Below, piece by piece: positions 46,929 through 64,000 of a stretch of 64,000 nt of DNA. Within the stretch, counting starts at the first letter, position 1. Every line of letters begins with the position of its first letter. The stretch comes from a virus, in IMG/VR virus record IMGVR_UViG_3300026521_000466, positions 100,798 through 164,797 of that record. One strand, given 5' to 3'. The notes beneath the pieces were generated by a model, which saw only the letters and a program-made list of their open reading frames with translations, did not search any database and was not told the DNA's origin. The translations under genes were made by a program, and so were the position numbers.

Positions 46929-47803
46929 TGAAGTTTCTAAGGAACAATAAGTATATCAAATATGTATGGGATAGAGGCAATGAAACATTAGCCAACCATC
47001 TCATCTATATGATAGAAAAAGGACTCATAGATGACTTACAACTGTATTTAAATAATAAATATGGTACTAAGTTAATAGTGGATGGTATTTTCGGAATGAA
47101 TACACTTGTTGCAATAGACACAGCAATGAGAAAAGACCACGGCGTAATAGATAATTTCATTACATTAAACACTCCAAAGAAACCAACTATCAAAAAGATG
47201 GTATTGACTTTCCTTGCAGATGCCGAGGGTACAATAGTCCATTTTAATAAAAAAACGGAAACATCTTATACTGCCCCATATGGAATATATAGAAAAGTAT
47301 TCCCTAATGCCACTGTAATAAAATATATTGACAGTCTATATAGGAAATATAATTTAAATATAGAGTCTCCAAAAGACGCCAGAAGAATTAATTACCTAAT
47401 GACCAATGATGAAAAAGAACTGGCTAGAGAACTAGCATGGGAATTTTATAAAAAATACTTCATAGCAAAACCATTACTAGATATATTGGATACCAGCAGT
47501 TTTCTTACATATTTCAGTATCTCTGTAAATGGAGGAAAAAAAAGAGGGGGGAAGGCTATACAACACACGATACACGCAAAAGCTGATGGTGCAATTGGAC
47601 CAAGCACTATAAAACATATTAAAGACTTCCTGTTGCAAAAAGATTTTACGCGGTTAAATTTCGGTATGTTGGAATACATGTATAATTTCTACCGAAGACT
47701 TATCTCTATGCATAGCGAATACAGCATATATAAAAACGGATGGTATAACAGACTATTGAAAACATCTTGCGGACTATTCCAAAGAAAATATAGATCATTG
47801 TGA
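46928..47803 (+). CDS. Endolysin, GH108-like lysozyme with peptidoglycan-binding motifs
   Basis: LQ..LN...VDGIFGMNT, AEG, T.PYGI, SVNGG, DGAIGPST, GWYNRL. Confidence 0.8.
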   Translation: MKFLRNNKYIKYVWDRGNETLANHLIYMIEKGLIDDLQLYLNNKYGTKLIVDGIFGMNTLVAIDTAMRKDHGVIDNFITLNTPKKPTIKKMVLTFLADAEGTIVHFNKKTETSYTAPYGIYRKVFPNATVIKYIDSLYRKYNLNIESPKDARRINYLMTNDEKELARELAWEFYKKYFIAKPLLDILDTSSFLTYFSISVNGGKKRGGKAIQHTIHAKADGAIGPSTIKHIKDFLLQKDFTRLNFGMLEYMYNFYRRLISMHSEYSIYKNGWYNRLLKTSCGLFQRKYRSL

Positions 47804-47821
47804 TGGGATTCCCATCACAAT
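47797..47821. terminator. Hairpin between convergent genes
   Basis: ATTGTGATGGG/CCCATCACAAT. Confidence 0.7.
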
Positions 47822-48264
47822 GTCGGTCTTTTTACTCTGTCGCGCAAGGAAACAATAACGTCACTGCTCTTTATCCTTCTACTATATATAACAAGCGCTA
47901 AATAACAAATTCGTATATTGTCAGTCGGAATATCTCTGACAATAGTGTCCTTGACTGCATTTACAACTTCAAATGTATTTTTGATAGTATCAAAATATAT
48001 AGACATGTAATTGTTGATATAATCAACACATCCATTTATGGATAAATAATGATACATATCAGTAAGAAAATATATATTCTCCCAACTCATTTCATATGCT
48101 GGCTTTACACTGATCACGCCGTCCACACAATCTGTAAGTGTGGAATTTGTGATTGCTAATATCATATTATATATATTATTAAATACATCTCCGCTGGCGT
48201 CATCTAGGTATATAGAAGACTGTAAGAATATTGTCATATGCTCATGAAATTCTTCACTCTTCAT
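47815..48264 (-). CDS. Hypothetical protein
   Basis: 149 aa ORF overlapping the upstream stop. Confidence 0.65.
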   Translation of the reverse strand: MKSEEFHEHMTIFLQSSIYLDDASGDVFNNIYNMILAITNSTLTDCVDGVISVKPAYEMSWENIYFLTDMYHYLSINGCVDYINNYMSIYFDTIKNTFEVVNAVKDTIVRDIPTDNIRICYLALVIYSRRIKSSDVIVSLRDRVKRPTL

Positions 48265-49408
48265 CTTCTTCGCCCCATAAACGGACCACTACATCATCAC
48301 CATTAAAAAGACCCGAATCTTCAACTTGCACAGTCTCTACATTAATTGGGGTTTCCACCAACTCAAAATCATCGTCTTTGTTATCCTCATGGCTTGCAAA
48401 GTCTCTGTATTTATTTTCCGGAATAGATTCAATATCTTCGGAAGTGGGTTTTTGAGGTTTAACATCAGGGACATATTCTTGAAGATAGTCAGCCTCCACA
48501 TCAGCGGAATTGTCTTCACTGTCGAGAAAAAGGAAGTCTTCACCAGACTCTTCAATTATAACTATGCCTGATGTATTATCATCAGTAAGCCCAATACACA
48601 ATGACGGATGTTCTGTCAATTCAAAGTCATCAACCTCTATTTCTACATCAGCATGATCAGAAACATTATCTTCCGATCTCTCAATGCTCTCTGCATCACA
48701 CTCAGTCGATACATCAGAACTATTTTCTTCACTCGTTTGTTCTTCAACATCTACATCACAAAGCTCTCCTAGCACTTCATCTTCATCATTACATACACCG
48801 GATTCTTCAGCCGTTTCTTCTACGGCCTCTTCTGCATTGTCGCCTGGTTCTTCCTGCACAAGTTGGAACTCATCAGATGTCCCGTTTGCAGCAATGAATG
48901 TAGCACCAGCCTCGAGAAGAACTATAATGGTAGCATCGCTAAGTTTCTCCTCGATAATAAAATGACTGAATCCTTTTTCAAGGAGTTCAGTTGCTCTTTT
49001 AGGATGCAACTGTTTGAGTTTCTTTGTGGTAGTCTCTTTAACTGCTTCCTCTTGCGGCTTTCCCGCAAATCTACCCTCTTCCATAGCGCCAGTTGACTGG
49101 GCACCCCAGATCTTTTTCATCTGTTTTTCCATTTTTATACTCTCCTTATCTATTGTTTTAAGAACAGAAGCATTGTTGCTCAATGCCTTGATATCCTCAT
49201 AGAACTTATCAACTCTCTCTTTTGAAATAGCGTACTTTTTTGCCAATCTTGTCCATGTCTTCACAAACTCTTTTAGAAGAAGAGTGTCTATCTCTCCCTC
49301 TGTTTTAAGAGCTAACTCAGCCTCATCAATACCATCGAGAGCATCGTTGTATACGCTCTCAATGTACCGACTATCCATATAGATGACCATACTGTCTTTG
49401 ATACCCAT
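48254..49408 (-). CDS. Protein with highly acidic, low-complexity C-terminal half
   Basis: D/E-rich from about aa 180; AAGGAG RBS. Confidence 0.75.
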   Translation of the reverse strand: MGIKDSMVIYMDSRYIESVYNDALDGIDEAELALKTEGEIDTLLLKEFVKTWTRLAKKYAISKERVDKFYEDIKALSNNASVLKTIDKESIKMEKQMKKIWGAQSTGAMEEGRFAGKPQEEAVKETTTKKLKQLHPKRATELLEKGFSHFIIEEKLSDATIIVLLEAGATFIAANGTSDEFQLVQEEPGDNAEEAVEETAEESGVCNDEDEVLGELCDVDVEEQTSEENSSDVSTECDAESIERSEDNVSDHADVEIEVDDFELTEHPSLCIGLTDDNTSGIVIIEESGEDFLFLDSEDNSADVEADYLQEYVPDVKPQKPTSEDIESIPENKYRDFASHEDNKDDDFELVETPINVETVQVEDSGLFNGDDVVVRLWGEEDEE

Positions 49409-49420
49409 ATTTATCTCTCC

Positions 49421-49849
49421 TTACACAAGTATTTTTCTATTTACCAACACCCAGTCATTAGCGTGCATGTCATCTACAGTAGGAACATATATCGTATCCC
49501 AGTATTTACAGGACCTGATAATATTTCCGCTTGACTCTCTTACAGCAAATTCATTGGGGAACCATCCTTCTCTAGCAACTAGAAGATTAGTATCATTTAT
49601 AAAAGTCATCGCCTGTTCATAATTGAATGGCTCAAAGTCAACTTGTTGGTCAAACGCCTTTTTGATAATTTTTTTCATCTTATCAATATCTGCGCTCACT
49701 GGTATATCCACATATACCTTTTTATCATTCATAACTGCAATAACACTAAAATAGTTATCACTAAACGCTACTTGCTTATTTATAAATAAGTAAATCCCAT
49801 CGCCTATCAGTTTAGCATAGGCCTTTAACTCTTCAATTTCAACTATCAT
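49421..49849 (-). CDS. DUF2829 / Tad2-like domain protein with N-terminal extension
   Basis: FNYEQAM.......VAREGW...YVPTVDDMHANDWVLV matches the DUF2829 pattern F..AL.......VAR.GW...PS..D.LA.DW..V. Confidence 0.75.
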   Translation of the reverse strand: MIVEIEELKAYAKLIGDGIYLFINKQVAFSDNYFSVIAVMNDKKVYVDIPVSADIDKMKKIIKKAFDQQVDFEPFNYEQAMTFINDTNLLVAREGWFPNEFAVRESSGNIIRSCKYWDTIYVPTVDDMHANDWVLVNRKILV

Positions 49850-49887
49850 CTTTTTCCTTTCGTTTAATTAATATTTTTTAACTTTTT

Positions 49888-50277
49888 TTATCTGGATATG
49901 TTAATGTGTACAAGTTCGTCTATTGTAATCCGATATTCCTCAGTCTCTTCTACATTCGAGAATACCAGTTTGTTATTTTCAACTATATATGCTGAATTTT
50001 GAGATGGGGCTATAATGGCTATGGGCTTAGAACCCATATCTTTTACAAAATACCCTATTAACTCAACATCCTCAACCTGCCCATAGATAACAAAAGTATT
50101 ATCTGTAACAATAACCGGCTTACCCTTAACTGTAGGTGATACTATAGTCTTCTTAAAAACACCTTTCTGCATCTTAGCATTTAATGTCGATACAGTGAAC
50201 GATTCAAGTCCATATGGGTTATGGACCTCGAGCAAGTCACACCTCTGATTGTTTGTTTTATTTGCTTGGATTCTCAT
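49888..50277 (-). CDS. Hypothetical protein
   Basis: GGAG RBS. Confidence 0.65.
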   Translation of the reverse strand: MRIQANKTNNQRCDLLEVHNPYGLESFTVSTLNAKMQKGVFKKTIVSPTVKGKPVIVTDNTFVIYGQVEDVELIGYFVKDMGSKPIAIIAPSQNSAYIVENNKLVFSNVEETEEYRITIDELVHINISR

Positions 50278-50758
50278 TGAGCTCTCCTTCTACTGTATTC
50301 TCTTTTGCGTCTACACATACCTCTTTTGTAATAATACTATCGATATGTGATTTAAATGGCACCAGCTCTTTGTTAACATCAGTGAGCTTCAAGTCGCCAT
50401 CTTTTACCTCGAACAACATGCCATTACTGATAAGTACATCACCCTCTCTGAATAACACACCATAAACATACGAATTTTTCATATATGATTTTGGAGTTAA
50501 TATTTTCATTACAGTGAGCATGTTATTATCTGCACCGACCATCGTATCAGAGTCAACAATGACCAACATTGAATCAATGTATTCTCCACGGACATCAAAT
50601 ACAAGTTGTTTATCATGTCCGTTAATTGCATCTATGGCAATGGTGTTTTCACCAATCACACCTTTTAAAACGGGCTTTCCATAAGCCTTTAGGTCTTGGA
50701 CACCATCTAGTTTAAACGCTGGATGCGTCTCGAATATTTTCACGTTATTATATGTCAT
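50258..50758 (-). CDS. Hypothetical early protein
   Basis: AAGGAGG RBS; first gene after the promoter. Confidence 0.7.
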   Translation of the reverse strand: MTYNNVKIFETHPAFKLDGVQDLKAYGKPVLKGVIGENTIAIDAINGHDKQLVFDVRGEYIDSMLVIVDSDTMVGADNNMLTVMKILTPKSYMKNSYVYGVLFREGDVLISNGMLFEVKDGDLKLTDVNKELVPFKSHIDSIITKEVCVDAKENTVEGELNENPSK

Positions 50759-50784
50759 ACCTAACCTCCTTATGACTTTTTAGT

Positions 50785-50837
50785 TAGCTTTACAGCACCT
50801 AAGCGTATCCATTATAATAATATATAAAAGAAAAAAA
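50785..50837 (-). promoter_or_regulatory. Early-type promoter plus leader motif
   Basis: Minus strand reads TTTTTTTCTTTTATATATTATTATAATGGATACGCTTAGGTGCTGTAAAGCTA. Confidence 0.8.
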
Positions 50838-50853
50838 CCCTCTCAGGCATTAT

Positions 50854-51303
50854 ATGATACTTAACAACAAACAAGAAATATTAATTGATATTAAAAAAGG
50901 GAAAAACATGAAAATTAAATTTGTTTATAAAATTATACCAGTTGCAGTGTTCTATACAGATTTCCTAGTCGATAAGAACCTTGATGGGAAAAACCTCGGT
51001 CTCTTTATAGTCATACGTCCAAGATGTAAAGATGATATCCAATTATTAAACCATGAACTTATACATACTAAACAGTTATTTAGAATGGGTTTAACATCAT
51101 GGATATTTATGGCACTTAGCGAAAAATGGAGAATTAAATTAGAATTAGAAGCATACCTAAATACTCTTGGATGTAATAGACACATGCAAAGATTTATAAC
51201 CAATACTCTTAGCAAAAACTATAAAATAAAAAAATACACAAAAGATGATATAAAAAAAATTATAAAAGAAGAATGTGAAAAGATGAAGTTGTGTGGGAAA
51301 TAA
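50854..51303 (+). CDS. Small HExxH zincin-like protein (true start probably MKIKF)
   Basis: LNHELIHTKQ and ELEAY; CACACAAC terminator hairpin follows. Confidence 0.65.
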   Translation: MILNNKQEILIDIKKGKNMKIKFVYKIIPVAVFYTDFLVDKNLDGKNLGLFIVIRPRCKDDIQLLNHELIHTKQLFRMGLTSWIFMALSEKWRIKLELEAYLNTLGCNRHMQRFITNTLSKNYKIKKYTKDDIKKIIKEECEKMKLCGK

Positions 51304-51319
51304 CCCACACAACTCAATA

Positions 51320-52156
51320 TTATTTTTTTCTAAGTATAACTTTGGTTATACTAGATAAGTCTATATCATTATCTGTAAGATATTCAATAGTTAAACTTGC
51401 AAATAAATATTTGCTATATCTTCCCTTTCCTTCTAACATAACTATATTTTTAAATATATGATTTGGGAAGTACGCCCAATCACCAGTGAGCTCCCACAAA
51501 TTACTGCCACATGATGCAACAAAATATTCATCAGATTTCTTTTCAATAATAAAATCGTCATGACATGTTCCTGCTGAATCAAAAACGATAAGAGTATTAT
51601 CATTTACAGAAAATGAAAGCTCCTTTTGCAATTTATACTTGACAGCCGTTGCCCGTTTCCTAATTGTTTTAATAACACTCTTCTTCTGCTTTTTATCCCT
51701 AGTCCTCTTCTCTTTCTTAATGACCAATCTTGAACTAGGGTATGATACATCAAGTTCCTTACATAGTAATTCTGATATGCTTAACACAATAGGCGCATAC
51801 TTATTGCATCTTACCTCATTTATTTCATCTGGAATATACTGCTTAGCATGAAACAGCTTAAAATGGTCCGATGGAGGTATTGTAGATGCTAACAGAAAGA
51901 TAAACTCATCCACTACATCTTCTATCTTTAAACTGCCTCCTGTTGACTCTGACCATATTTTTTTAGTTAGTTCAGTTACTTTCTTCAAAGACTTATTTCC
52001 AACTTTTACTTCAAAACCTCTTATTCCAGAACCATATTTCCTAGCATAATATTTTGATTTATCGGTATGTTCATCTACATTATCTAGTATAGTCTTCATC
52101 AATATAGCAAGCACCATATGATGTCTTACATATTTTGGTATTTTTTCATATTTCAT
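51320..52156 (-). CDS. Hypothetical protein
   Basis: 278 aa ORF with a basic linker. Confidence 0.7.
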   Translation of the reverse strand: MKYEKIPKYVRHHMVLAILMKTILDNVDEHTDKSKYYARKYGSGIRGFEVKVGNKSLKKVTELTKKIWSESTGGSLKIEDVVDEFIFLLASTIPPSDHFKLFHAKQYIPDEINEVRCNKYAPIVLSISELLCKELDVSYPSSRLVIKKEKRTRDKKQKKSVIKTIRKRATAVKYKLQKELSFSVNDNTLIVFDSAGTCHDDFIIEKKSDEYFVASCGSNLWELTGDWAYFPNHIFKNIVMLEGKGRYSKYLFASLTIEYLTDNDIDLSSITKVILRKK

Positions 52157-52157
52157 A

Positions 52158-52937
52158 CTATCCCCTATTTAATTCCTTTTTAGTTATTACACAACTAAGC
52201 TTACCTCCAGAGATATATACCACATTCTTTTTATTGTAGAGTAGACGCTCTGAATTACTGACTATAAGCTCTCCGCTATCCTCTCGCTCTCTTTTTTTAA
52301 GCATGTCCCATATAACAATGGCTAACTTATCATACTGATGGTCAAGGTAGATATGTGGCAAACAAAACGACCTAAATATCACACTGATATCGCCCTCTAA
52401 GTCATCGGTTGAGATACCTTTTTTAGGAATGTAACTATTAAACAGTCCAATATGATGAAAACGTTCAATCTGTTGCATGGTAGCTCCATTATACAATAGA
52501 TTGACAATCATCTTTTCTTCATACGATAATTGCCCAGCGACATCTATGACATAGATTTTATGTAATGTCGGTATGTGTAGGTCGCACATCATTGATAACT
52601 CATCAGCACCGGACATTCCAGTAAATGATTGAGTGTATGAAGAAGAATCACCTGAATTATCAACCTTATCGTCTGTCAATTCAACATCATTACTATCAGA
52701 TTCATTGCTCACATCAGCAATAGACTTTTCAAGTTTATATATTGTATTAATAACAGTGCCAACATCCGGTTTAACTGTATCATAATCATCATATCCATTA
52801 GATACCTCTCTGTTTATCTCCACCATACCACTATTATATCTCAACATGACATTGTCAAGATATAAATCATCTACCTCTAATCCACAGTTTATCGAGTATA
52901 TCCAATCAGCCACATGTTTTATATCTGTATTTTTCAT
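52158..52937 (-). CDS. Hypothetical protein
   Basis: 259 aa ORF with GAGGAG RBS. Confidence 0.7.
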   Translation of the reverse strand: MKNTDIKHVADWIYSINCGLEVDDLYLDNVMLRYNSGMVEINREVSNGYDDYDTVKPDVGTVINTIYKLEKSIADVSNESDSNDVELTDDKVDNSGDSSSYTQSFTGMSGADELSMMCDLHIPTLHKIYVIDVAGQLSYEEKMIVNLLYNGATMQQIERFHHIGLFNSYIPKKGISTDDLEGDISVIFRSFCLPHIYLDHQYDKLAIVIWDMLKKREREDSGELIVSNSERLLYNKKNVVYISGGKLSCVITKKELNRG

Positions 52938-53935
52938 TTCTTCTCCTCTATTTTAAATTTATGCTTTGGTTTCCCTATTTTATAATAATCCATCATATCA
53001 TCAATGACATTGGACAGATTATCATATTCATCATCCATGTTAAATTTCTTAACGATGTCTTGGAGTGAATATGCCATAGATAAATTATAATGCTTAAGTA
53101 TATTCACATATAATGTATCACTGTAATCTGTGCCGTACCCAACTTGAAATTCAAACAGACCTAAATCACCATCGTCTGTAATATAAAAATCAAACGAGAG
53201 GGATGCAGCCATTGTATTGTTGTACATATATCTGTTTATACGGTCTATTATCTCTAACATCTGTTTACGATAATACAGTGGTAATTTATTAGTCAATTCC
53301 TCAAAACCATCATACTCGGTGCGACTTGTCGTTACGTCACTGCCTTTCAATTTTTGAGATATATAACCATGTCTTATATCACCGCACATATACCGCGCAT
53401 CCGATCTAAACGTTATCACCCGATACTCTTCTTTTATTGGTAGTATCTCTTGAATAACACCTTTCAATTCGCTAAAACTTCTAATGCCTGATTCATCATA
53501 CTCACCCACTGACTTGCCCTTAAGAGATTCTTCCAACTCACTTATGCTATAATTATAACTATTGTATAAAAATTTCGCATCTATCTTAAAGATATCTTCT
53601 GAGTTAGCAGAGTCAAACGGTTTAAATAGAAATTCTCTATCTTCAAAATAGTTAGAGATTGTTAATATATCTGATCTCTGACGAACAGTGAATGTGGTCG
53701 GAATAGGTATTTTCAAATGATGCATTAAAGAGTACATCTTCTCTTTAGCATAATATTGCAAATCCCCAATATACACCAAAAACGGATGGTGTCCATCTGA
53801 AAAGATAACCTCTCCAGACTTTTGATTATTTGGAATTGCATTATTATTTAATTCCATAAAATACCTTGTATCTAAAAAGTACAGCCAATTCGACCCAGCT
53901 AAACCAATGATCTTTATTTTATTAAATCCTGACAT
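52934..53935 (-). CDS. ATP-grasp fold protein (RimK-like, divergent)
   Basis: K...Y..M....IPIPTTF, LFKP, VIQEIL...EEYRV, SFDFY..DDG....FE. Confidence 0.7.
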   Translation of the reverse strand: MSGFNKIKIIGLAGSNWLYFLDTRYFMELNNNAIPNNQKSGEVIFSDGHHPFLVYIGDLQYYAKEKMYSLMHHLKIPIPTTFTVRQRSDILTISNYFEDREFLFKPFDSANSEDIFKIDAKFLYNSYNYSISELEESLKGKSVGEYDESGIRSFSELKGVIQEILPIKEEYRVITFRSDARYMCGDIRHGYISQKLKGSDVTTSRTEYDGFEELTNKLPLYYRKQMLEIIDRINRYMYNNTMAASLSFDFYITDDGDLGLFEFQVGYGTDYSDTLYVNILKHYNLSMAYSLQDIVKKFNMDDEYDNLSNVIDDMMDYYKIGKPKHKFKIEEKK

Positions 53936-53963
53936 AAAACTCTCCTTTCATTTTATATGTCTC

Positions 53964-54006
53964 ACACCTAAGTAGTGTCTATTATAATAATATACAAAAG
54001 AAAAAA
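53964..54006 (-). promoter_or_regulatory. Early-type promoter plus leader motif
   Basis: Minus strand reads TTTTTTCTTTTGTATATTATTATAATAGACACTACTTAGGTGT. Confidence 0.8.
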
Positions 54007-54020
54007 CTTATAAGAGGGAG

Positions 54021-54539
54021 TTACTTCTCCCTCCTCATCGCTTTTAAAACTTCTTCTTCCGAGGCTCCCAAAAATTTTAAAAGAGAGAACCTAGTATTTA
54101 TAGTCTTTTTAATTATATCAAAAGGTTCAATCTCCCTAATATTAAAATCAAGAATATCACTTATTTTAATATCGTTCTTTAACTCCTTTATTGAATTTTT
54201 GCCCGGACTTTGAAGTAGGTCTATATATTCAGACTCACTACATCTACGCTTAAACTTTTTATACTCCTTAGCATTCATATCCAATGCCATACAATTAAAA
54301 TCACGGCATATGTTTGGTCTATGATCATAAATACTACACATACCATCATCCATCATCATAGGGCATATGATTCTATTATTCTGAAACGAATCAATCATAA
54401 CATACTCTACATCGCCTACTGTAGAGTGCGCCATTGGAACATCCACCTTTGCATCCCTAAATCTTTTGATATCTTCAAGCACCAATTCAACAGGTTGTAG
54501 ACAACAACCTTTTAACGTGCACTTATCACATGTAAACAT
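54021..54539 (-). CDS. YkgJ-family (CxxCxxxxCC) cysteine-cluster protein
   Basis: FTCDKCTLKGCC ... CPMM..DG.CSIYDHRPNICRDF. Confidence 0.82.
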   Translation of the reverse strand: MFTCDKCTLKGCCLQPVELVLEDIKRFRDAKVDVPMAHSTVGDVEYVMIDSFQNNRIICPMMMDDGMCSIYDHRPNICRDFNCMALDMNAKEYKKFKRRCSESEYIDLLQSPGKNSIKELKNDIKISDILDFNIREIEPFDIIKKTINTRFSLLKFLGASEEEVLKAMRREK

Positions 54540-54582
54540 TTTACACTCCTTTTATTTGTATACGCCATAATAATATGCAAAT

Positions 54583-54620
54583 AAAAAAAGATACAGAACC
54601 CTCACTAGAGAGTCCTGTAT
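54583..54620 (-). terminator. Terminator closing the ncRNA/tRNA unit
   Basis: Minus strand reads ATACAGGACTCTC-TAGT-GAGGGTTCTGTAT-CTTTTTTT. Confidence 0.75.
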
Positions 54621-54650
54621 GTATTGTCCATGGGTAGAGATAAATCTCTG

Positions 54651-54707
54651 TGGAGGAGCATATGTTGCTATACCCTAACTGGTCATCTGCAACGCCGGGC
54701 TCCTCCA
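54651..54707 (-). ncRNA. Small structured RNA candidate
   Basis: TGGAGGAGC/GCTCCTCCA outer stem and GTTGC/GCAAC inner stem. Confidence 0.45.
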
Positions 54708-54722
54708 TCAAAATTTATTAAT

Positions 54723-54823
54723 AGGATGTCCAGAGTCAATTCTCTGGTTAGGCAATTTATATCGCGTGTGCCTTACGGTCACGGGACGCTCCCTGCGAGT
54801 TGGGTTCCTATCTCCCACATCCT
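54723..54823 (-). ncRNA. Cloverleaf-like structured RNA candidate
   Basis: AGGATGT/ACATCCT closing stem with arms GGG/CCC, GGGA/TCCC, AGGCA/TGCCT and CCAGAG/CTCTGG. Confidence 0.5.
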
Positions 54824-54974
54824 TATAACAACCGCTTGTAGCTAGCGGCCATTACCGGCTATTAGTGTATCAGCTACTTTCACTCTGCAACTACTAAACC
54901 GAAGTTTTCAATCACCACTCCACAACATATTAATAAATATGTAATATCTATGTAGTGAAACATCAGTATTTCAT

Positions 54975-55025
54975 CGGGCCTCCCGATGGAATCGAACCAT
55001 CTTTGCGATACGACCTTGAGGAGGC
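54975..55025 (-). ncRNA. Minimal tRNA-like RNA (acceptor stem plus T arm only)
   Basis: GCCTCCT/GGGAGGC acceptor stem, GATGG-TTCGATT-CCATC T arm, 17-nt linker in place of the D and anticodon arms. Confidence 0.6.
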
Positions 55026-55031
55026 ATAAAT

Positions 55032-55108
55032 TGGTGGGTTGTCAGAGACTCGAACTCTGGACCGCCCGGTTATGAGCCGGGAGCTCTGACCAACTGAGCT
55101 AACAACCC
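55032..55108 (-). tRNA. tRNA with CAU anticodon (elongator Met or Ile2), encoded CCA
   Basis: GGGTTGT-TAGCTCAGTTGGTCAGAGC-T-CCCGG-CTCATAA-CCGGG-CGGTC-CAGAG-TTCGAGT-CTCTG-ACAACCC-ACCA; G1-C72 pair argues against initiator. Confidence 0.95.
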
Positions 55109-55132
55109 AAAAAATAAGAACGGCTGTATTCT

Positions 55133-55553
55133 CCTAAGTCGGAGGTCACATATACACACCGTCGATGCATATGCCAAGTCATGTATTTAACCTTATAACG
55201 TACCAATCTTCTAACACTCATGACAATATGCGCGATTGGATTATTACGTGCCTCGGGACAACACCAATTGTCCATTACGTACCCTCCGAGTTTTTACCCG
55301 AGAAATCAGGAGGGTTTACGACGCCTAGTGTCATAGATACAATATCTATTATAATCACGAGTTACCTCAATGACCTTTTCGACTACTGAACAACAAGTGT
55401 ATTTCGCCGAACACCAGGAATTTTGCGTGCATCCGCACTACCACGTTTTCACATGGAGGAACTCACGATATCCCAAATGATAAACTTATACACAATGTGA
55501 TTTCGCTTATCATTCCCATAGACTGCTCACCATATCTATATAATAGACTTAGG
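55133..55553 (-). ncRNA. Large (~420 nt) multi-helix structured RNA candidate
   Basis: Long-range CCTAAGTC/GACTTAGG and GTCG.AGGTCA/TGACCT..TCGAC pairings, many local stems, no convincing ORF. Confidence 0.55.
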
Positions 55554-55639
55554 CTTCTTTGTGTTTTACATATCTCTCCCTATGGCGAGTAGATATAACC
55601 ATTTTAAGTATTGGAACTAAACATACCTACATATGTTCA

Positions 55640-55662
55640 CATTAATAATATACAAATAAAAA
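55640..55662 (-). promoter_or_regulatory. Early-type promoter heading the ncRNA/tRNA unit
   Basis: Minus strand reads TTTTTATTTGTATATTATTAATG. Confidence 0.7.
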
Positions 55663-55679
55663 TATTTGTAAATTAAAAC

Positions 55680-57311
55680 TTATTCTCCGCCTGCTGCGCT
55701 ATACAGGACCAGACCATACTTACTAAGGTTATCCAATTCTAAAGAATCTCCTGCTGTAGAATAAGCTGATACAGCATCTCCATCACCATCGTACGTCACA
55801 AATCTACAATCAACTACACTAAAACCATCAATGTTGATCTGTTGAGTACTATCACCGCTCATAGTAACTTGGCCTAAAGTAACTTTTGACCCTCCTGTTG
55901 CTTGAACAAGAATTGCGCCTGGAGTCATATCCATACCAACCAAGGTAACAGTTGAGTTATTTACTTCCATAAATGTAGCCTCGCCATCACCCACTGTGGC
56001 TGGGAAAGAACCTTCCATATTAATATTTGAATTATTAGCTAGTATCATCTTAGAAGTAGGACCAAATTTAAGAGACATATCACCGCGACTCCCATGGACA
56101 TGACATGATTGTAATACCAATAACTCATAACCAGAAGTATTACTTATCGATGTTTTTATGCTACTTACAAAATCAATTACAGATAATTCACCATAAATAA
56201 ATCTTTGATCAGACAAAGCAGCACTTGGATTGACCAATGTCATTGTTGATTTTTTCAATAAGATATCATATGAACCATTATAATCACCGTTAGTCTCTAC
56301 AGAAGAATCCTCATACGTGATATAACTATTCACTGCAAATATTGAACCAGCGGCATTTTCTGTTTTGAAAATACAAGAATCAATACTTACATCTCTTGCA
56401 GAATAATAATTAAGTGCGTAAGCGGAATCTGAATTATCGGTAGATTTTATAATGCAGTTACTAAAGTTACAAGCGGCTTTATATGCCTGACATGATATAT
56501 CTAATGTAATACCTTCAAACGCAACATCTGAAAATGCATATATTAAAGATCCTCTTCCATAGATAGTCACGTTTTCTGGATCTCCACTTTCAGAATAGAT
56601 TGATAATGCCCCACCCTCACCAATTGAAGGCTGCACATAAAATATATTTATATCACTAACATCTGAAACATCATAAGTGCCATCTGCTAAATATATATCA
56701 ACTGGATATTTAAGTATTTTACTATTTATAGAATCTATTGCCCTAATAAAACTGTCGGTATCGGAAACCATAATCTCGTCTGATCCTGTATAATATGCAG
56801 ACTCACCACCAGATCCACCTGCTGAAGCCTCTTCTTTGATCATTACAAAAATGTTATTCCCATTAGAATAAATAAGTTTAACATGAGTGAATTCCTTTAT
56901 ATCACCTTGTTCCAAATCTGCAAATCCGTCAAAATCACCAGCGTTATCGCGCAGTATCTTTCTTACAGGAACAACTGGGCCATTGTTAACTTTAATAGTT
57001 ACAGGTCCGTTATTACTAGAGGTTGTTAAAAAATCAACTTGCATAAAGTCTGTATATGTACTTCCTCCCGATATATTGTTAAGCACAATATAATCCTCTG
57101 TTGAATCATCACCGAGAACATAATGGTTGTGTGAAGATAACATTTGAAGGGTTTTTCTTAACTTTTTATTATCCTCAACATTTTCAATTCCTGCACCAGG
57201 AAACTCTACAGCATAACTTAGATTTCCTGTAACAAGATTTACAAGACTATCTTGCACAGTACCTTGTGACCCAGGATAGTTATTGATTTTTTGCTCAATA
57301 TCTAAAATCAT
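55680..57311 (-). CDS. Probable tail fibre/spike with parallel beta-helix (pectin-lyase-like) domain
   Basis: N.GPVTI.VN...V.V.K head domain, SAGGSGG linker, IYLADGTY start of the beta-helix, S/N/G/I-rich repeats. Confidence 0.65.
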   Translation of the reverse strand: MILDIEQKINNYPGSQGTVQDSLVNLVTGNLSYAVEFPGAGIENVEDNKKLRKTLQMLSSHNHYVLGDDSTEDYIVLNNISGGSTYTDFMQVDFLTTSSNNGPVTIKVNNGPVVPVRKILRDNAGDFDGFADLEQGDIKEFTHVKLIYSNGNNIFVMIKEEASAGGSGGESAYYTGSDEIMVSDTDSFIRAIDSINSKILKYPVDIYLADGTYDVSDVSDINIFYVQPSIGEGGALSIYSESGDPENVTIYGRGSLIYAFSDVAFEGITLDISCQAYKAACNFSNCIIKSTDNSDSAYALNYYSARDVSIDSCIFKTENAAGSIFAVNSYITYEDSSVETNGDYNGSYDILLKKSTMTLVNPSAALSDQRFIYGELSVIDFVSSIKTSISNTSGYELLVLQSCHVHGSRGDMSLKFGPTSKMILANNSNINMEGSFPATVGDGEATFMEVNNSTVTLVGMDMTPGAILVQATGGSKVTLGQVTMSGDSTQQINIDGFSVVDCRFVTYDGDGDAVSAYSTAGDSLELDNLSKYGLVLYSAAGGE

Positions 57312-57380
57312 ATTTGTCCTTTTTTAATTAATATAAACTTTATAAACTTATCATGGAAAAAAGAAATATAACGGCCCATC

Positions 57381-57581
57381 TCACATGAGATGAACCAGTT
57401 GACCTACATATATAAATTCAATACTAACAGTTGGCAAATATAACTCTGCTTTTAATCCAGTTAAAAGTTGCAATGCAGCCTCTTTCCACGCCACTATATC
57501 CTTTACAAATTCAGTATCTGCTACACCAGATATTGTTATTGATTTTTCCCTTTCTGATGTTGTATGTTTCAAGCCCTCCAT
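57381..57581 (-). CDS. Small hypothetical protein
   Basis: AAGGAG RBS. Confidence 0.55.
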   Translation of the reverse strand: MEGLKHTTSEREKSITISGVADTEFVKDIVAWKEAALQLLTGLKAELYLPTVSIEFIYVGQLVHLM

Positions 57582-57583
57582 AA

Positions 57584-57796
57584 TTACTCCTTATTACCTA
57601 ATGAATGTTTGGTTACATAAATAGCAATAAACTCCTCATCAAACTGAGACTCCCATTTACAATCAGGGCAAGAAAACTGTTTGCCCGTAAAGAAAGTTCT
57701 AGGTGTTGTTCTGCATTTAAGATTACCACAGTATGGTGTATAAGTAGAATCATTTAGCAGGTTCATTCTTACCAAAGATGTTGTATTATTACCCAT
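57584..57796 (-). CDS. Small zinc-finger-like protein
   Basis: YTPYCG...C...PRT...QFSCPDC.W. Confidence 0.6.
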   Translation of the reverse strand: MGNNTTSLVRMNLLNDSTYTPYCGNLKCRTTPRTFFTGKQFSCPDCKWESQFDEEFIAIYVTKHSLGNKE

Positions 57797-58028
57797 TGCT
57801 CACCTCCTCCTTTACGATAACTAAACCAGAACACATATTGTTCTTTTTAAAATACTGGATGTATTTCTTTTTAACTATGTCCGGACACTCATCCTGTTTA
57901 ACAACTACACCGTATGAATTACATCTTTTACAAATAAATTCTCTATGGCCAGGAATAATGCTTAATGGAAAGTACAGCCTATTTTTTTCTTTATGTTTAC
58001 AAAACAATCGCGTTATCTGTCTAATCAC
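57789..58028 (-). CDS. Small cysteine-containing protein
   Basis: LFCKH and CKRC motifs; GGAG RBS. Confidence 0.6.
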   Translation of the reverse strand: MIRQITRLFCKHKEKNRLYFPLSIIPGHREFICKRCNSYGVVVKQDECPDIVKKKYIQYFKKNNMCSGLVIVKEEVSNG

Positions 58029-58040
58029 TTTATCTCTCCT

Positions 58041-58670
58041 CTATACGATCCATGGATCTTCTTTATTAATAACTTGATAATGATAAACATCGTCGTCAGT
58101 AACATTATATCTTTTCTTTATCTCTGAACTTAGACTATATCTATCACGAAAATAAATTGTAGTGATATATTTATCTTTCTTTCTAGTTATAAACACACCA
58201 ATGTATTCATCTTTCATGGTAAGTCTATCAACAATGTCAAATCCTCTTCCCTTTATATCAACCGCGTATATTTCAGTGCCTATGACAGGAAGACTATCGT
58301 TATCACTTATCATTCTCGATGGCACTGTCGGTTTAATATTAATTTTTACCAAATGCCTCACGCCACAATGATCGGAGATATCTTTAGCTAATTGCTCTAT
58401 ATTCTTTCCACCGGCACCTATAAAATGAGAGATGACATCCAATGGAACACGCACAGTAACAGTTTTATCTTTTGGTGTTAAATCAACCCACATTACCAAT
58501 GAAGTCCCCACCATAATCATTTTATAACCAGTCATTCTTTCAGTATCCCGATGAAGATCCATAATAAAAATCGGAGCTCTTCTAGGCATATATAGCCATA
58601 ATAGTGTGGCTGAATTTGGCACCATCAACCATTTTTGTTTCTCCTTTATATATTCCAACACCTCTTTCAT
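58041..58670 (-). CDS. KH-domain RNA-binding protein (paralog 1)
   Basis: VTVRVPLDVISHFIGAGGKNIEQL, a type I KH GxxG loop. Confidence 0.75.
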   Translation of the reverse strand: MKEVLEYIKEKQKWLMVPNSATLLWLYMPRRAPIFIMDLHRDTERMTGYKMIMVGTSLVMWVDLTPKDKTVTVRVPLDVISHFIGAGGKNIEQLAKDISDHCGVRHLVKINIKPTVPSRMISDNDSLPVIGTEIYAVDIKGRGFDIVDRLTMKDEYIGVFITRKKDKYITTIYFRDRYSLSSEIKKRYNVTDDDVYHYQVINKEDPWIV

Positions 58671-58903
58671 CTCAATCCCCTTATATTTTTAAAATAGATA
58701 TTCCTCTGTTTAAAACGAATTCCGACATCACTAATGATAGTGACAAGCATTTTAACATGTGCTTCTTTATCGAATTTATCAATATGCTTTTTAGGGAGCT
58801 CTTTTAAAATCTTTACATATAGCCCAATAATCAACTCTCTTATATCACTGAAATCAACGCTGTTATTGCGAAACACATACTGCCTCATATCCATAGTTCC
58901 CAT
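58667..58903 (-). CDS. Small hypothetical protein
   Basis: 78 aa ORF with ATGA overlap. Confidence 0.5.
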   Translation of the reverse strand: MGTMDMRQYVFRNNSVDFSDIRELIIGLYVKILKELPKKHIDKFDKEAHVKMLVTIISDVGIRFKQRNIYFKNIRGLR

Positions 58904-58972
58904 ATATGGTGGCGTTGCATTAACATCACCACAACAATAATCAAAAGGGATACCGGGCAGTTGCCCAGCACC

Positions 58973-59596
58973 CTATAATCGGTAACACCATTTATGGTCA
59001 CACTCAACAGTCTGATAAAGATTTATATTATTTTCATTAATTTTCAATGTATCTTCAAAAGTCGCTTTCATACTATCTCTATCTTTGAAATATGCTGAGA
59101 GTAGATACTTTCCATATCTTTTATTATATCCTGCATAAACACAATCATTATGGCCATTCAGCCCTGCTATCATTGTATCAACAATAAGACGCTCATCAAA
59201 GGACATATTGATTACATAGAGCTCATCACCATCGGTGCATTCATTACATGTAAACAACGGCTGTATGTTAACAACAGCATTCCGTTTTAAACCAAACATC
59301 TTTGTCAATCTGCGACGCACTCTTTTTATATTGTGTCCTTGTATTCCAATAAACTGTTGTCTTACATAAGGAGGCACTTTTATATTGAATTGGTGTCCTA
59401 TTACTTGTGAAGGGTCAATTACACATGCGCCTGCTTGTCCAGCACTTATAAGTTTATACCCTGTCATCTTCTCTATATGATCACTGTATTTTCCTATATT
59501 TACACAATCATTATTGATCATTAATTTATGAGCTATCAAATGCCCATGTTTAAATAGTGTATCTTTATTTTTTTTAATATATTCTAAAATATCCAT
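58973..59596 (-). CDS. KH-domain RNA-binding protein (paralog 2)
   Basis: FNIKVPPYVRQQFIGIQGHNIKRV; shares ILEYIK, EKMTGYK and YF.DR.S with 58041..58670; start moved to ATG 59596 after AAAGGA. Confidence 0.72.
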   Translation of the reverse strand: MDILEYIKKNKDTLFKHGHLIAHKLMINNDCVNIGKYSDHIEKMTGYKLISAGQAGACVIDPSQVIGHQFNIKVPPYVRQQFIGIQGHNIKRVRRRLTKMFGLKRNAVVNIQPLFTCNECTDGDELYVINMSFDERLIVDTMIAGLNGHNDCVYAGYNKRYGKYLLSAYFKDRDSMKATFEDTLKINENNINLYQTVECDHKWCYRL

Positions 59597-59772
59597 CCAT
59601 ATTCCTTTATATAATTGTTTAGTCATCAAAGTAGCTATACTAAGACTCAAAAAAGGAAGAAAGGGGACTCACTCCCCTTTCTGTTTGTTGTCGTAGTACA
59701 TATAATATCTTAACAGTGCCGTCCATACTATACCGACTATTATTAAAAATAGCCCAAACTCTTTTTGCTCTA

Positions 59773-60351
59773 TCATATGTGATCCAAGATTATTCCCAAT
59801 AGCACAAAATCCATCAGGAGCCCATATAATATCTCACCAATACACCACGTACACCCCACATACTCGCCATCAAAGTCTTCATATTTAGTAATGCGATTTG
59901 ATAATGCAAATGCCATAGGAAAGCCAATACTCAACACCAATACACTTAATACCATAAAACCAATAGTTATATGTTCCCTATACCAGAGCAGTAATAATAG
60001 AGGTAAGAACCAATAGAGACCACGTATTGCTAATGCTACTGTATTAAATAAAAATGGATTCTCTTCTCTATCTATGAATACTGCTGTTATCCATGTAATA
60101 CCTGTTCCCTTGGCCTCATCTTCAACATATCCCCGCTTTACTCTTTCTGCAATATTATCAAAAGCCACTGTGGAGAGCCAAAACCCCCAACAGAATGACT
60201 CACCGACCACATAGAGTAATCCTGCTATAACACTATAAAATATATTCCCGTCTATCAGATAGAACCCTGCACCAATCAGTAATGCAGTCACCCACAAATA
60301 AGGTATCTTCGTATCCATGCCTCTTAATCTGTTCAATATAGTAAACATCAC
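59773..60351 (-). CDS. Multi-pass membrane protein
   Basis: LNRLRG N-terminus and 4-5 hydrophobic helices. Confidence 0.7.
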   Translation of the reverse strand: MMFTILNRLRGMDTKIPYLWVTALLIGAGFYLIDGNIFYSVIAGLLYVVGESFCWGFWLSTVAFDNIAERVKRGYVEDEAKGTGITWITAVFIDREENPFLFNTVALAIRGLYWFLPLLLLLWYREHITIGFMVLSVLVLSIGFPMAFALSNRITKYEDFDGEYVGCTWCIGEILYGLLMDFVLLGIILDHI

Positions 60352-60412
60352 TCTCTCCTAAAAAATAAAAAAAGTAGCAGTGCTGTAGAGTATCCACAGC
60401 TTACTGCCTTCA

Positions 60413-61078
60413 TTAAACTAAAGACCTGGCATAGAATCCAGCAAAATCCATGTCAAAAATATCTTCATTAGCTGAACCCGAAACAACTTTAGCCATAGAT
60501 ACCAATACCCTATCATCTATATCATTATCAACGGACACCACCACGTGAGGTATTACTAGATTGTATAGATAGTTATATATCTCCTTTTTACAGATGGTTT
60601 CGATGCCTGCCGCTCCCACTGACCCTTCTCTATTTCTCACTACTTCATACTCTACAGTGTAGTGACCCTCATCCTTTTCACCAATGGTTATCCTAGCTAA
60701 TTTGGACATATTGAGAAGACTGTTGAAATCGATATTCTTGAAATCTCCCTCATCTATTCTGGAAAAATAATCATCTGCAATGCGGTAGTTTAGTAACTCT
60801 ATCACTTTCAATATGGCTTTATAAACAGTCATGTCTACTTCTACCATACTTGTATTCTTCACAGACACGCTATAAATATTATTTTCAAACTTCACAGTAT
60901 ACATAGAGGAGGTCACATTATACTTTTTGGAAACAGCAGATACATTTATTGTGTCATATGTCGGCCTCATACCCGTATGGTGTTCTTCTTGCTCTACACT
61001 GGTCATAAACCTATACTCTTTATACTCCTCACCACCTACCTCTTTATTCAACTCACTCAGAAACATATACATGATCAC
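60413..61078 (-). CDS. Hypothetical protein
   Basis: AAGGAG RBS. Confidence 0.7.
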   Translation of the reverse strand: MIMYMFLSELNKEVGGEEYKEYRFMTSVEQEEHHTGMRPTYDTINVSAVSKKYNVTSSMYTVKFENNIYSVSVKNTSMVEVDMTVYKAILKVIELLNYRIADDYFSRIDEGDFKNIDFNSLLNMSKLARITIGEKDEGHYTVEYEVVRNREGSVGAAGIETICKKEIYNYLYNLVIPHVVVSVDNDIDDRVLVSMAKVVSGSANEDIFDMDFAGFYARSLV

Positions 61079-61563
61079 TCCTTCTCATTTATTTTTGCCA
61101 TTAGCGCATATCTGTTTACTTTAGACAATTCACTCATTAGATCATCAAGTACTATTTTAGACGCATGATCTGTTGAATCTAGCAATTGCCTACCAAACTT
61201 TATAATAAGTTTATCAGCCTCCTTTTGAGGAGTAAGAGTGTACAACTCTTGCAATAGGCGATGAACCAACTTAATATCAGCATTGTAATACATCGCAATG
61301 CCCAACTCCATCAAATCACCATCCAACTGATTAATCAATATTTCAGCACCTTTAAGATCATGATGTTTTATCAATAATACCAATGCTGCCAATTCATCTA
61401 TTGTTGTTATCTTTATATTATCACTATTGGATATGAAGGATTTTATATCCAATGTATATGCAGAAAGATTATTCAGTATGCTTGTGGCCATAATTGATTT
61501 TTTCATTCCAGTCACGCCATATTCCCTATCAGAAGGTAGTTTAACACCATCTAAATATTCCAT
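61075..61563 (-). CDS. Hypothetical protein
   Basis: 162 aa ORF. Confidence 0.7.
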   Translation of the reverse strand: MEYLDGVKLPSDREYGVTGMKKSIMATSILNNLSAYTLDIKSFISNSDNIKITTIDELAALVLLIKHHDLKGAEILINQLDGDLMELGIAMYYNADIKLVHRLLQELYTLTPQKEADKLIIKFGRQLLDSTDHASKIVLDDLMSELSKVNRYALMAKINEKE

Positions 61564-61583
61564 TGTTCGCCCCTTACCATCAC

Positions 61584-61865
61584 TTATCTTTTCTCACTTC
61601 TATTGAAAATACTCTTTAGGAACTCCTCTGTGATCATTCCTTTCTGATAATCATATATAGGTATTGTTTTACCGTTATAGAAAAGAGCCTCGGTCCATGT
61701 CACCTTTCCATTTTCATAAAGGTAAATCATCGCTCCGGTATGCTCGTTAAATATATCATCCGCATCAAACCCAACGATCCATCCGTGCTCACGCAACTCT
61801 CTGATCAAATTAACCAAATCTCTTTTATTATACCCTGCATCTATCACCACTACCTGATTCATCAT
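61584..61865 (-). CDS. Hypothetical early protein
   Basis: AAGGAG RBS downstream of the promoter at about 61889-61923. Confidence 0.7.
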   Translation of the reverse strand: MMNQVVVIDAGYNKRDLVNLIRELREHGWIVGFDADDIFNEHTGAMIYLYENGKVTWTEALFYNGKTIPIYDYQKGMITEEFLKSIFNRSEKR

Positions 61866-61888
61866 TCACTCCTTCTTTTTTATTAGTA

Positions 61889-61923
61889 CACCTAACCAGT
61901 GTCTACAGTAATAATATACAAAT
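61889..61923 (-). promoter_or_regulatory. Early-type promoter plus leader motif
   Basis: Minus strand reads TTTGTATATTATTACTGTAGACACTGGTTAGGTGT. Confidence 0.75.
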
Positions 61924-61931
61924 CAACTATT

Positions 61932-62249
61932 TCACCCACCCACTCTATACAGACTAGACAAGCTGACCTCCCTCATCTCTTTTACTATCTTAAATGTCAT
62001 AGCACAATACTTATCAACCACTTTACTCTCCACTACCTCTATCCCCGTATCTCCACAAGCCAAAAGAAATCTCTCATGCACATAGAGTAAACACCATAAA
62101 CTATGAAATTCATCAGGTATATCTCCTATGTTCATCTTCACCACAGCATTACACTCCACAGACATCAACACCTCCATCACACTATCTACATAATTATCTA
62201 TCTTCTCCCTACACACGTCACTCGTATTATTCATAGGCATATAGACCAT
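61932..62249 (-). CDS. Hypothetical protein
   Basis: GAGGAG RBS. Confidence 0.6.
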   Translation of the reverse strand: MVYMPMNNTSDVCREKIDNYVDSVMEVLMSVECNAVVKMNIGDIPDEFHSLWCLLYVHERFLLACGDTGIEVVESKVVDKYCAMTFKIVKEMREVSLSSLYRVGG

Positions 62250-62464
62250 CTTATCTCTCCTCTCTCTCTAAAAATTATTTGTTACTCTATCTAACTAACT
62301 CATATTCAAATACCCGTAAAAAGAAAAAAGAAGCAAAAAAGAAAATCTCTCCCCATACAGAGGAGAAGATATTAAAAAAGAGAAAATACTCATTATATCA
62401 ATATAAGAGATACCATGGTGTGCTGCACTCCCGTGAGAGACTCACGTTACGCACACCCAAAGAA

Positions 62465-62635
62465 AAAAGGGATACCACTACACTGTAGCCAATAGGTACA
62501 TACTGCCGGCATACTCCTAAGGTCGTATACCTAGAGAGTTCCTACGGTCACTCTCTACAGTATGTCTGTATTAATAGACTCTCATCATCCCCTCTCCCTA
62601 GAAGGGTTCTCCCCTTCTTCTCTCATGACTTCATA
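62465..62635 (-). ncRNA. Structured GGA-rich element, copy 2
   Basis: Same architecture as copy 1; identical TAGAGAGTTCCTACGGTCACTCTCTA core; strand inferred. Confidence 0.55.
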
Positions 62636-62694
62636 TAAATACTATTGAAATAAAAAAATATATAGAGAATAAAAGAGGAGAGAGGTAGGTAGTA

Positions 62695-63054
62695 TTACCT
62701 ACGTTTTCCTGTGCCAGGTGCACCACCCTGATACACTCCAGGTCTCTTAGAGACCTTTATCTTCTTTGTGAAGACCTCTCTCTTTAACTTAGCCAATCTG
62801 GCTTCCTCTTTCCATTCATCACGGTCTCCCCTCTCCCATGATTTACTTACCCCTTCAGCTCTTCTTTTGTTGAGATCTTTCAATCTCTCGAACTTGAGAG
62901 ATGCTCTAGTGATTAGAGCTGCATCCTCATCACTAAGATCTTTGTCGTTATATACAAAGATGACCATTTTTACAAATGCTCTCTCTGACCTATTTATCTT
63001 AGAGATAGATTTCTCTAAGAATAACTCCACTTGTGATCTTTCGTGCTCGTTCAT
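62695..63054 (-). CDS. Basic hypothetical protein
   Basis: C-terminal VYQGGAPGTGKRR; AAGGAG RBS; early promoter at 63099-63126. Confidence 0.7.
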   Translation of the reverse strand: MNEHERSQVELFLEKSISKINRSERAFVKMVIFVYNDKDLSDEDAALITRASLKFERLKDLNKRRAEGVSKSWERGDRDEWKEEARLAKLKREVFTKKIKVSKRPGVYQGGAPGTGKRR

Positions 63055-63083
63055 TTCAACTCCTTTTATTATATATAACTAAT

Positions 63084-63853: not shown

Positions 63854-63877
63854 TCCTTTATCTTAATTAATACCGAT

Positions 63878-63918: not shown

Positions 63919-64000
63919 ATCTATTGGTAGAGACTTAAGCCCCTACCTTAAAGTATTTATTATACGCGTACCATCCATAGAATGACTCAATAGTGCCTAT

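Follow-up and report, generated by a model that had tools for sequence, protein, structure and literature searches.

When more than half a kilobase of phage DNA without a convincing gene lies between a promoter and a tRNA gene, the question arises whether it encodes a structured RNA with a function of its own or is simply the leader of a tRNA precursor. Such a stretch is found at 55110-55640 of the window analysed here, which forms the terminal 64 kb of an IMG/VR contig of 164.8 kb (GC 34.9%). The original prediction was that it forms a closed domain of ~420 nt and represents a large structured non-coding RNA, perhaps of a new class. The contig encodes a chimallin-like shell protein, split DNA polymerase and RNA polymerase genes and a ribonucleotide reductase, and on these grounds the phage is a distant phiKZ-like jumbo phage, AT-rich and chimallin-encoding. 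Jumbo phages of the phiKZ type build a nucleus-like compartment, and this phage, too, probably has a nucleus-forming lifestyle. Its DNA polymerase is at most ~30% identical to that of any cultured phage and 49% identical to the best metagenomic protein; in the nearest IMG/VR record (here G001) the DNA polymerase identity is 45%.

The stretch is part of a gap at 54540-55679 (1140 nt, GC 0.407), longer than any other gene-free stretch of the contig, and the minus strand is the sense of every element in the gap, of the tRNA and of the flanking genes. A chimeric assembly at the tRNA was considered and rejected, because the promoter motif and the style of the genes are the same on both sides. In an independent Logan assembly (SRR7968103) the sequence between promoter and tRNA (below, the leader) is identical, and there is therefore no variation to analyse.

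Read along the minus strand, the elements follow one another in the order promoter, 9-bp hairpin, leader, tRNA, truncated tRNA-like element, ~350-nt trailer and terminator. The promoter, at 55643-55662, is a phage motif composed of a T-rich tract and TTTGTATATTATTA, in keeping with the claim that the stretch directly follows an early promoter. This motif is repeated: the window holds 13 copies where chance would give 0.37, and each of the 13 is on the minus strand. The contig as a whole has 27, of which 24 are minus-strand copies, and the 16 in G001 are again exclusively on the minus strand. The window copies examined are positioned 29-63 nt upstream of start codons. In phiKZ the early motif combines an extended −10 box with an upstream element rich in T (PMC8244752), and the motif found here resembles this type of early promoter. 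A 9-bp hairpin (55617-55639, minus strand; MFE −7.1 kcal/mol, z −4.3, with 0 of 200 shuffles as good) is situated at, or adjoins, the putative transcription start. It is followed by the untranslated 5′ leader of ~528 nt (55109-55636, minus strand), which has no coding potential, matches no Rfam family and leads into the tRNA (55108-55032), so that the stretch does lie upstream of a tRNA on the same strand, as had been stated. The unit ends at an intrinsic terminator with a 13-bp stem, a 4-nt loop and a run of seven T residues (T7; 54581-54620, minus strand). Directly after this terminator comes the next copy of the promoter motif (54568-54584), which precedes a gene for a 172-aa protein with a CxxCxxCC domain.

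Scans for terminators and for the promoter motif detected neither a terminator-like site nor a further promoter between 55640 and the tRNA, and the U6 tract that precedes the tRNA has no abutting hairpin. The leader is thus placed as expected of a tRNA-precursor leader, that is, between a promoter and a tRNA of the same strand with nothing intervening. Since no terminator or promoter interrupts this interval, the flagged stretch would be the leader of a predicted non-coding transcription unit of ~1.05 kb that has its own promoter and its own terminator. By the same token, a stretch located between a repeated promoter motif and a same-strand tRNA, without a terminator, is very probably transcribed as RNA.

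The absence of a convincing ORF, which was part of the original prediction, is borne out by codon usage. With a log-odds score trained on 94 long ORFs, real gene segments of 58 codons have a mean of 0.417 (sd 0.122), whereas the best 50-codon window in all six frames of 55110-55640 reaches only 0.118, far below the codon usage of genes. The claim of a GC content above that of the flanks also holds: the genome has a GC of 0.349, whereas 55110-55640 has 0.395, which is the 93rd percentile among 531-nt windows, and 55133-55553 has 0.413. Other long intergenic gaps have a GC of 0.33-0.375, with a single exception (0.402) that forms part of a second non-coding unit; a GC similar to that of the leader is also found in many coding regions. 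The second unit (contig 78,005-78,480) likewise runs from promoter to terminator and folds with a z of −3.36, and it shows no similarity to the tRNA unit and no match in Rfam.

Known RNA families do not account for the leader. The 4227 covariance models of Rfam 15, applied at gathering thresholds to the whole window and at E<=10 to 54400-55800, recovered only the tRNA, together with noise at E<=10. Within 54400-55800, neither GOLLD (RF01998) nor ROOL (RF03087) gave a match even at this permissive level, which agrees with the initial failure to assign the stretch to either. The same search found no RNase P RNA, tmRNA, group I or group II intron, 6S RNA, Y-RNA-like RNA or member of any other Rfam family, and ARAGORN found no tmRNA. 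As Rfam 15 matched the tRNA only, GOLLD, ROOL, RNase P RNA, tmRNA and group I introns, the families against which a check had been proposed, are excluded. Remnants of tRNA genes were also sought in 55110-55640, and none was detected by RF00005 at E<=10 (a search that covered the whole contig), by ARAGORN at its 80% threshold or by a scan for T-loops.

Whether the leader is structured is a matter of degree. On the minus strand it folds with an MFE of −149.4 kcal/mol and a z of −2.59, a value equalled by 2 of 100 shuffles; the plus-strand fold of the same region has a z of −2.01. Five coding controls of equal length and strand gave z-scores of −0.33, +1.71, −0.83, −1.04 and −0.56, and the values for four further intergenic regions were −0.37, −4.12, −1.27 and −1.60. 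The z-score of the leader is therefore below those of all five coding controls and of three of the four intergenic ones, from which it follows that the leader is more structured than coding sequence and within the spread of the intergenic regions of this genome. The centroid structure (−140.8 kcal/mol) is almost the same as the MFE structure (−149.4 kcal/mol). Windows of 150 nt inside the leader have z-scores from about 0 to −2.1, and perfect local stems of at least 6 bp are marginally enriched, numbering 7 against 3.3 ± 1.9 in shuffles (P=0.05). Hence the proposal of a structured non-coding RNA stands in part: the stretch is non-coding and folds better than its shuffles, but the signal is moderate and does not leave the intergenic range.

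The same cannot be said of the closed domain of ~420 nt. The complementary segments on which this claim was based are present in the sequence, both those of the closing stem (CCTAAGTC at 55133-55140 and GACTTAGG at 55546-55553) and those of the overlapping long-range stem (GTCGGAGGTCA at 55138 and TGACCTTTTCGAC at 55371). However, long-range complementary 8-mers occur at chance level (3 against 1.8 ± 1.8 in shuffles, P=0.27), the helices depend on context, and in the fold of the whole 1046-nt transcript both of them, the closing helix included, are lost while the local modules persist. The local stems that had been listed (CCAATC/GATTGG, GGACAA/TTGTCC, CCCTCC/GGAGGG, ATAGATA/TATCTAT and AATGATAA/TTATCATT) are likewise all present, and the folds place several of the better-defined elements of the leader on the minus strand. 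A long hairpin with the core AAUGAUAA/UUAUCAUU (55474-55516) is stable in every context tried, that is, in the MFE and centroid structures of 531-, 1046- and 135-nt folds. Module D (55322-55418) is predicted to be a cloverleaf-shaped four-way junction, with a z of −2.56 and 3 of 200 shuffles as good; it persists in the whole-transcript fold and is, by these models, the best-supported sub-domain of the leader. The remaining module z-scores are −1.71, −1.25 and −1.94. The first belongs to the CCCUCC/GGAGGG hairpin domain which, with the GGACAA/UUGUCC hairpin, occupies 55256-55319 in the leader, whole-transcript and module folds, and the second to a long irregular hairpin, module F (55141-55254), that takes the same fold in the leader and in the whole transcript.

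The downstream half of the unit is informative in this regard. The tRNA (55032-55108, minus strand; ARAGORN; RF00005, 69.3 bits) has the anticodon CAT, which would specify Met, or Ile2 if modified, and its CCA end is encoded. This tRNA-Met(CAU) is the sole tRNA of the contig and has a GC of 0.58. Its body is 88-92% identical to tRNAs in Campylobacterota genomes, which suggests a host in that lineage. Only 6 nt after the intact tRNA begins a truncated tRNA-like element (54975-55025, minus strand), identified by its sequence, a T-loop scan and its fold, in which a 7-bp acceptor stem and a canonical T arm are present and the D and anticodon arms are missing. It is succeeded by the 3′ trailer of ~350 nt (54621-54974, minus strand), which is non-coding and strongly structured. 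The region 54591-54974 folds with a z of −5.65 (0 of 100 shuffles as good), far better than the leader, and includes a multi-arm module of 101 nt at 54723-54823 (z −3.55). As judged from these folds, it is the trailer and not the leader that is the stronger candidate for a structured RNA within the unit.

Relatives of the unit were sought by several routes. In a blastn search with 54540-55680 against 50,697 phage records, only the tRNA was matched. The flanking proteins (543 aa and 172 aa), compared with 5.8 billion clusters, retrieved only themselves; they form single-member clusters in a collection that includes JGI data, so that variant strains are unlikely to occur among its metagenome contigs. 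A 333-aa protein encoded two genes downstream retrieved, from 1.84 billion representatives, itself and two marginal partial matches. When the two flanking proteins and the DNA polymerase were each scanned singly against IMG/VR, none gave a match, and no identical copy of a 32-mer from the tRNA occurs there. Aligned relatives of the DNA polymerase led to 67 related IMG/VR loci, and in the 55 whole records that were then searched by BLAST the unit matched only promoter motifs and tRNAs. A single-sequence covariance model of module D found, in 37 related records, nothing but itself (121 bits). On the host side, a scan of prokaryote genomes with 22-mers of the tRNA selected Campylobacterota as the best-matching phylum, and among the matches listed from a BLAST search of 401 genomes of this phylum the unit again found only the tRNA. 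Synteny with G001 ends at window position ~47,800; for the remaining 16 kb, to which the tRNA unit belongs, G001 has no counterpart. Within the collections searched, the leader is accordingly a singleton, an orphan sequence, and because no second member was found a new RNA class is a possibility only.

A positional analogue is present in one relative, G452 (IMGVR_UViG_3300028549_000365; L217), whose DNA polymerase is 29% and whose tRNA-Met is 82% identical to those of this phage. Here, too, the tRNA-Met resides in extended non-coding DNA closed off by a terminator, and a well-folding segment of ~520 nt precedes it. The non-coding DNA of G452 amounts to 2.3 kb and holds five degenerate or insert-bearing tRNA-like elements as well as a duplicated partial tRNA, and the ~520 nt of non-coding sequence ahead of this array fold with a z of −3.55. 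The two leaders are not similar to one another, their Smith-Waterman score being equal to the mean of shuffles, and the G452 leader has no homolog in 54 relatives and no close IMG/VR relative by a 24-mer scan. Several degenerate tRNAs are still recognisable in G452, whereas the present phage has a single tRNA plus the minihelix. In two other relatives the tRNA clusters are compact and lack a long leader. The comparison cuts both ways, in that long, well-folding leaders recur at tRNA loci of this lineage and that tRNAs are visibly duplicated and decaying at such loci. Together with the truncated element that adjoins the intact tRNA, the degenerate elements of G452 suggest that tRNA genes have been decaying at this locus.

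The explanation that we prefer, and to which we give an even chance, is that the leader is a lineage-specific tRNA-precursor leader that is cut by RNase P and has, at most, a role in cis. The RNA polymerase of the phage would start at ~55636, just downstream of the TTTGTATATTATTA motif, would read the leader, the tRNA (CAU), the minihelix and the structured trailer, and would stop at the hairpin and T7 run at 54620-54581. Host RNase P would then cut at the 5′ end of the tRNA (55108/55109) and free the leader as a separate RNA. The leader itself would be a fast-evolving sequence with a few stable local hairpins and one cloverleaf-shaped module, and its most likely role would be restricted to cis, as the precursor segment that joins the sole promoter to the tRNA. 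In this scheme we infer the transcription start, the processing by RNase P and the lack of an independent function. The leader may, in origin, be what is left of tRNA-array DNA that was acquired or has decayed; against this particular origin is the fact that no recognisable tRNA remnant is contained in it. Several observations also weigh against a plain leader. A GC of 0.40-0.41 maintained over 500 nt is unlike the neutral drift of an old spacer, the z-score falls below those of all the coding and three of the four intergenic controls with modules that are independent of context, and the unrelated ~520-nt segment of G452 also folds well. Moreover, phage genomes are compact, and yet the promoter stands 528 nt from the tRNA.

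These same observations can be read as signs of a functional, stand-alone structured RNA, the first of an undescribed class, matured by tRNA punctuation. Cleavage by RNase P, together with processing of 3′ ends at tRNA and minihelix, would free a 5′ RNA of ~0.5 kb and a 3′ RNA of ~0.35 kb, and these would act in trans early in infection as a scaffold, a decoy or a regulator. This reading, the main rival, which we regard as possible but doubtful, would agree with the raised GC in an AT-rich genome, with a z of −2.59, a well-defined ensemble and context-independent modules, with seven local hairpins where 3.3 are expected, and with the dedicated promoter and terminator. The strongly folding trailer (z −5.65) would be co-transcribed, the phage has its second promoter-to-terminator non-coding unit (z −3.36), G452 supplies a positional analogue, and GOLLD and ROOL are often found near phage tRNAs with which they may be co-transcribed (PMC5737381). 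What speaks against it is that the searches yielded no homolog, and hence no conservation or covariation, that the region is absent from the nearest relative, G001, and that the G452 analogue shares no sequence with it. Furthermore, the long-range helices are at chance level, module z-scores range from just −1.3 to −2.6, and the overall z is inside the ordinary intergenic spread. The truncated tRNA 6 nt after the intact one, and the company of five degenerate or insert-bearing elements and a duplicated partial tRNA that the tRNA-Met keeps in G452, could instead mean that the leader is a purely neutral relic, either of several tRNA genes or of higher-GC DNA acquired along with the tRNA, and that its hairpins are decaying stems. 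The 88-92% identity of the tRNA body to Campylobacterota tRNAs points to a host origin, and the GC of the leader is intermediate between those of the tRNA (0.58) and the genome (0.349). We nevertheless hold a purely neutral relic to be improbable, as nothing tRNA-like was matched in the leader by Rfam at E<=10, ARAGORN at 80% or the T-loop scan, and the flanks of the tRNA have no match in the 401 genomes of the candidate host phylum.

Two further possibilities are less likely still. It might encode one or two small proteins, since a 58-aa ORF (55275-55099) has GGAGGG 6-7 nt upstream of its ATG and a 27-aa ORF (55358-55278) has GAGG 6 nt upstream, both Shine-Dalgarno-like sequences at good spacing, and the codon score of the shorter ORF (0.519) is gene-like. 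That score, however, stems from an AT-rich hairpin and is founded on just 27 codons, the 58-aa ORF scores −0.11, below every sampled segment of a real gene, and runs 10 nt into the tRNA so that its stop codon is inside it, and no 50-codon window in the six frames attains the level of genes; coding is thus highly improbable. An element acting at the level of DNA, such as a replication origin, a packaging site or a recombination site, or a retroelement RNA (retron, DGR), could be expected in the longest gene-free gap of the contig. We consider this just as far-fetched, given that the gap has no iterons and no significant direct repeats, none like those of replication origins or CRISPR arrays, that the cumulative GC skew has no turning point, that the contig encodes no reverse transcriptase, and that a promoter on one side and a terminator on the other frame the gap as they would a transcription unit.

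Taken at its most far-reaching, a functional reading would have a nucleus-forming jumbo phage, probably of Campylobacterota, make a single early transcript of 1.05 kb, punctuated by a tRNA, from which the tRNA-processing enzymes of the host free two orphan structured RNAs (~0.5 kb from the 5′ side and ~0.35 kb from the 3′ side) that act in trans during takeover. We view this as a speculative and rather unlikely scenario. If the leader is, as we prefer, a mere precursor segment, the value of the finding is one of annotation: a single tRNA would be expressed from a promoter that is of the phiKZ early type and lies at a distance, and the 1-kb non-coding unit that holds it is part of a hypervariable accessory region. 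Were the leader to prove a stable RNA, or the trailer, which is more plausible, the chimallin-encoding phages would gain a large tRNA-linked RNA; in these phages RNA has to pass between phage nucleus and cytoplasm, and few non-coding RNAs have, to our knowledge, been described.

Precedents exist for the individual features of such a unit. In the tRNA cluster of phage T4, the stable RNAs known as species 1 and 2 (~120-140 nt), which are conserved among T-even phages, are co-transcribed with the tRNAs, and mitochondrial transcripts are subject to tRNA punctuation. In both cases tRNA-processing enzymes free RNAs that are not tRNAs, whereas processing at the present locus is only predicted. [quoted passage not shown] They resemble the leader in being several hundred nucleotides long and in occurring in phages and prophages, often beside tRNAs and possibly co-transcribed with them (PMC5737381). 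The difference is that they are conserved across many genomes, whereas the present RNA is a singleton with moderate folding evidence that neither model matches. A precedent for the reading as a tRNA-precursor leader is given by the jumbo phage 201phi2-1 and by PAK_P3, in which a 5′UTR-derived RNA is located directly upstream of a tRNA (PMC11512511), and phiKZ itself, in which transcription start sites are associated with tRNAs (PMC8244752). With 201phi2-1 the present phage shares a non-coding RNA between a phage promoter and a tRNA, as well as membership of the phiKZ-like, chimallin-encoding lineage. The RNAs of 201phi2-1 and PAK_P3 are, however, shorter than 250 nt and arise by premature termination before the tRNA, whereas the leader described here is ~528 nt long and has no terminator at that point. 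A relationship in sequence between those RNAs and the leader is not to be expected.

The non-coding stretch flagged by the original prediction is the probable leader of the tRNA unit (55109-55636, minus strand; fold z -2.59), and as a structured-RNA candidate it is outranked by the trailer of the same unit, which lies 3' of the tRNA (54591-54974, minus strand). When folded against shuffled controls the trailer is stable far beyond chance, with a z of -5.65 and none of 100 shuffles equalling it, and it encloses a multi-arm module of 101 nt (54723-54823) with a z of -3.55. An Rfam search with the trailer gave no match, and no homolog was found in phage records, related IMG/VR records or Campylobacterota genomes. 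Within the leader, a minus-strand ORF of 27 codons (55278-55358) has a GTG start, a GAGG motif 6 nt upstream and a gene-like codon usage of 0.519; this gene-like appearance is probably artefactual, arising from an AT-rich hairpin.

The same phage carries a second non-coding unit of approximately 475 nt outside the window (positions 78005-78480 of the whole contig, minus strand; L002:106-580), bounded by a promoter and a terminator of its own, with a GC content of about 0.45 and a fold z of -3.36. It has no match in Rfam and no similarity to the tRNA leader. This unit is flanked by an RNA-polymerase beta'-like gene on one side and a helicase gene on the other, and in the nearest relative phage, G001, no more than about 30 nt separates the corresponding two genes. 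The final 16 kb of the contig (window ~47,800-64,000) is absent from G001, although the two phages are otherwise syntenic. It is populated by orphan genes preceded by copies of a repeated promoter motif, and looks like a hypervariable accessory region. Separately, the intergenic region 62250-62694 (minus strand), which includes the GGA-rich junction element noted in two copies from sequence alone, has a z of -4.12, and none of 100 shuffles folds as well.

This phage was also assembled independently, as the Logan contig SRR7968103_17637, which is 99.98% identical to window 55058-60311, the sole mismatch being coding (60283). This contig ends inside the tRNA, probably through an assembly break at host-like sequence. 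The tRNA itself (55032-55108) is 88-92% identical to Campylobacterota tRNAs (from one Helicobacteraceae MAG and one Nitratifractor MAG), which hints at a host in that lineage. Its G1-C72 pair argues against an initiator identity; it may be either Met or Ile2 (lysidine).

Six nucleotides past the CCA of this intact tRNA begins a truncated tRNA-like element (54975-55025, minus strand). In it, 17 nt link an acceptor stem of 7 bp to a canonical T arm, and the D and anticodon arms are missing. The element may have arisen from a tRNA by deletion, or may be a minihelix acting as a processing signal. In a related jumbo phage (IMGVR_UViG_3300028549_000365, L217:565-2848), the tRNA-Met is surrounded by 2.3 kb of non-coding DNA with a partial tRNA in tandem duplication and five tRNA-like elements that are weak or odd, scoring 21-47 bits. 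Two of these elements carry inserts of ~35 nt, and two were assigned 2-nt anticodons by ARAGORN; that array appears to be either decaying or home to unusual tRNAs.
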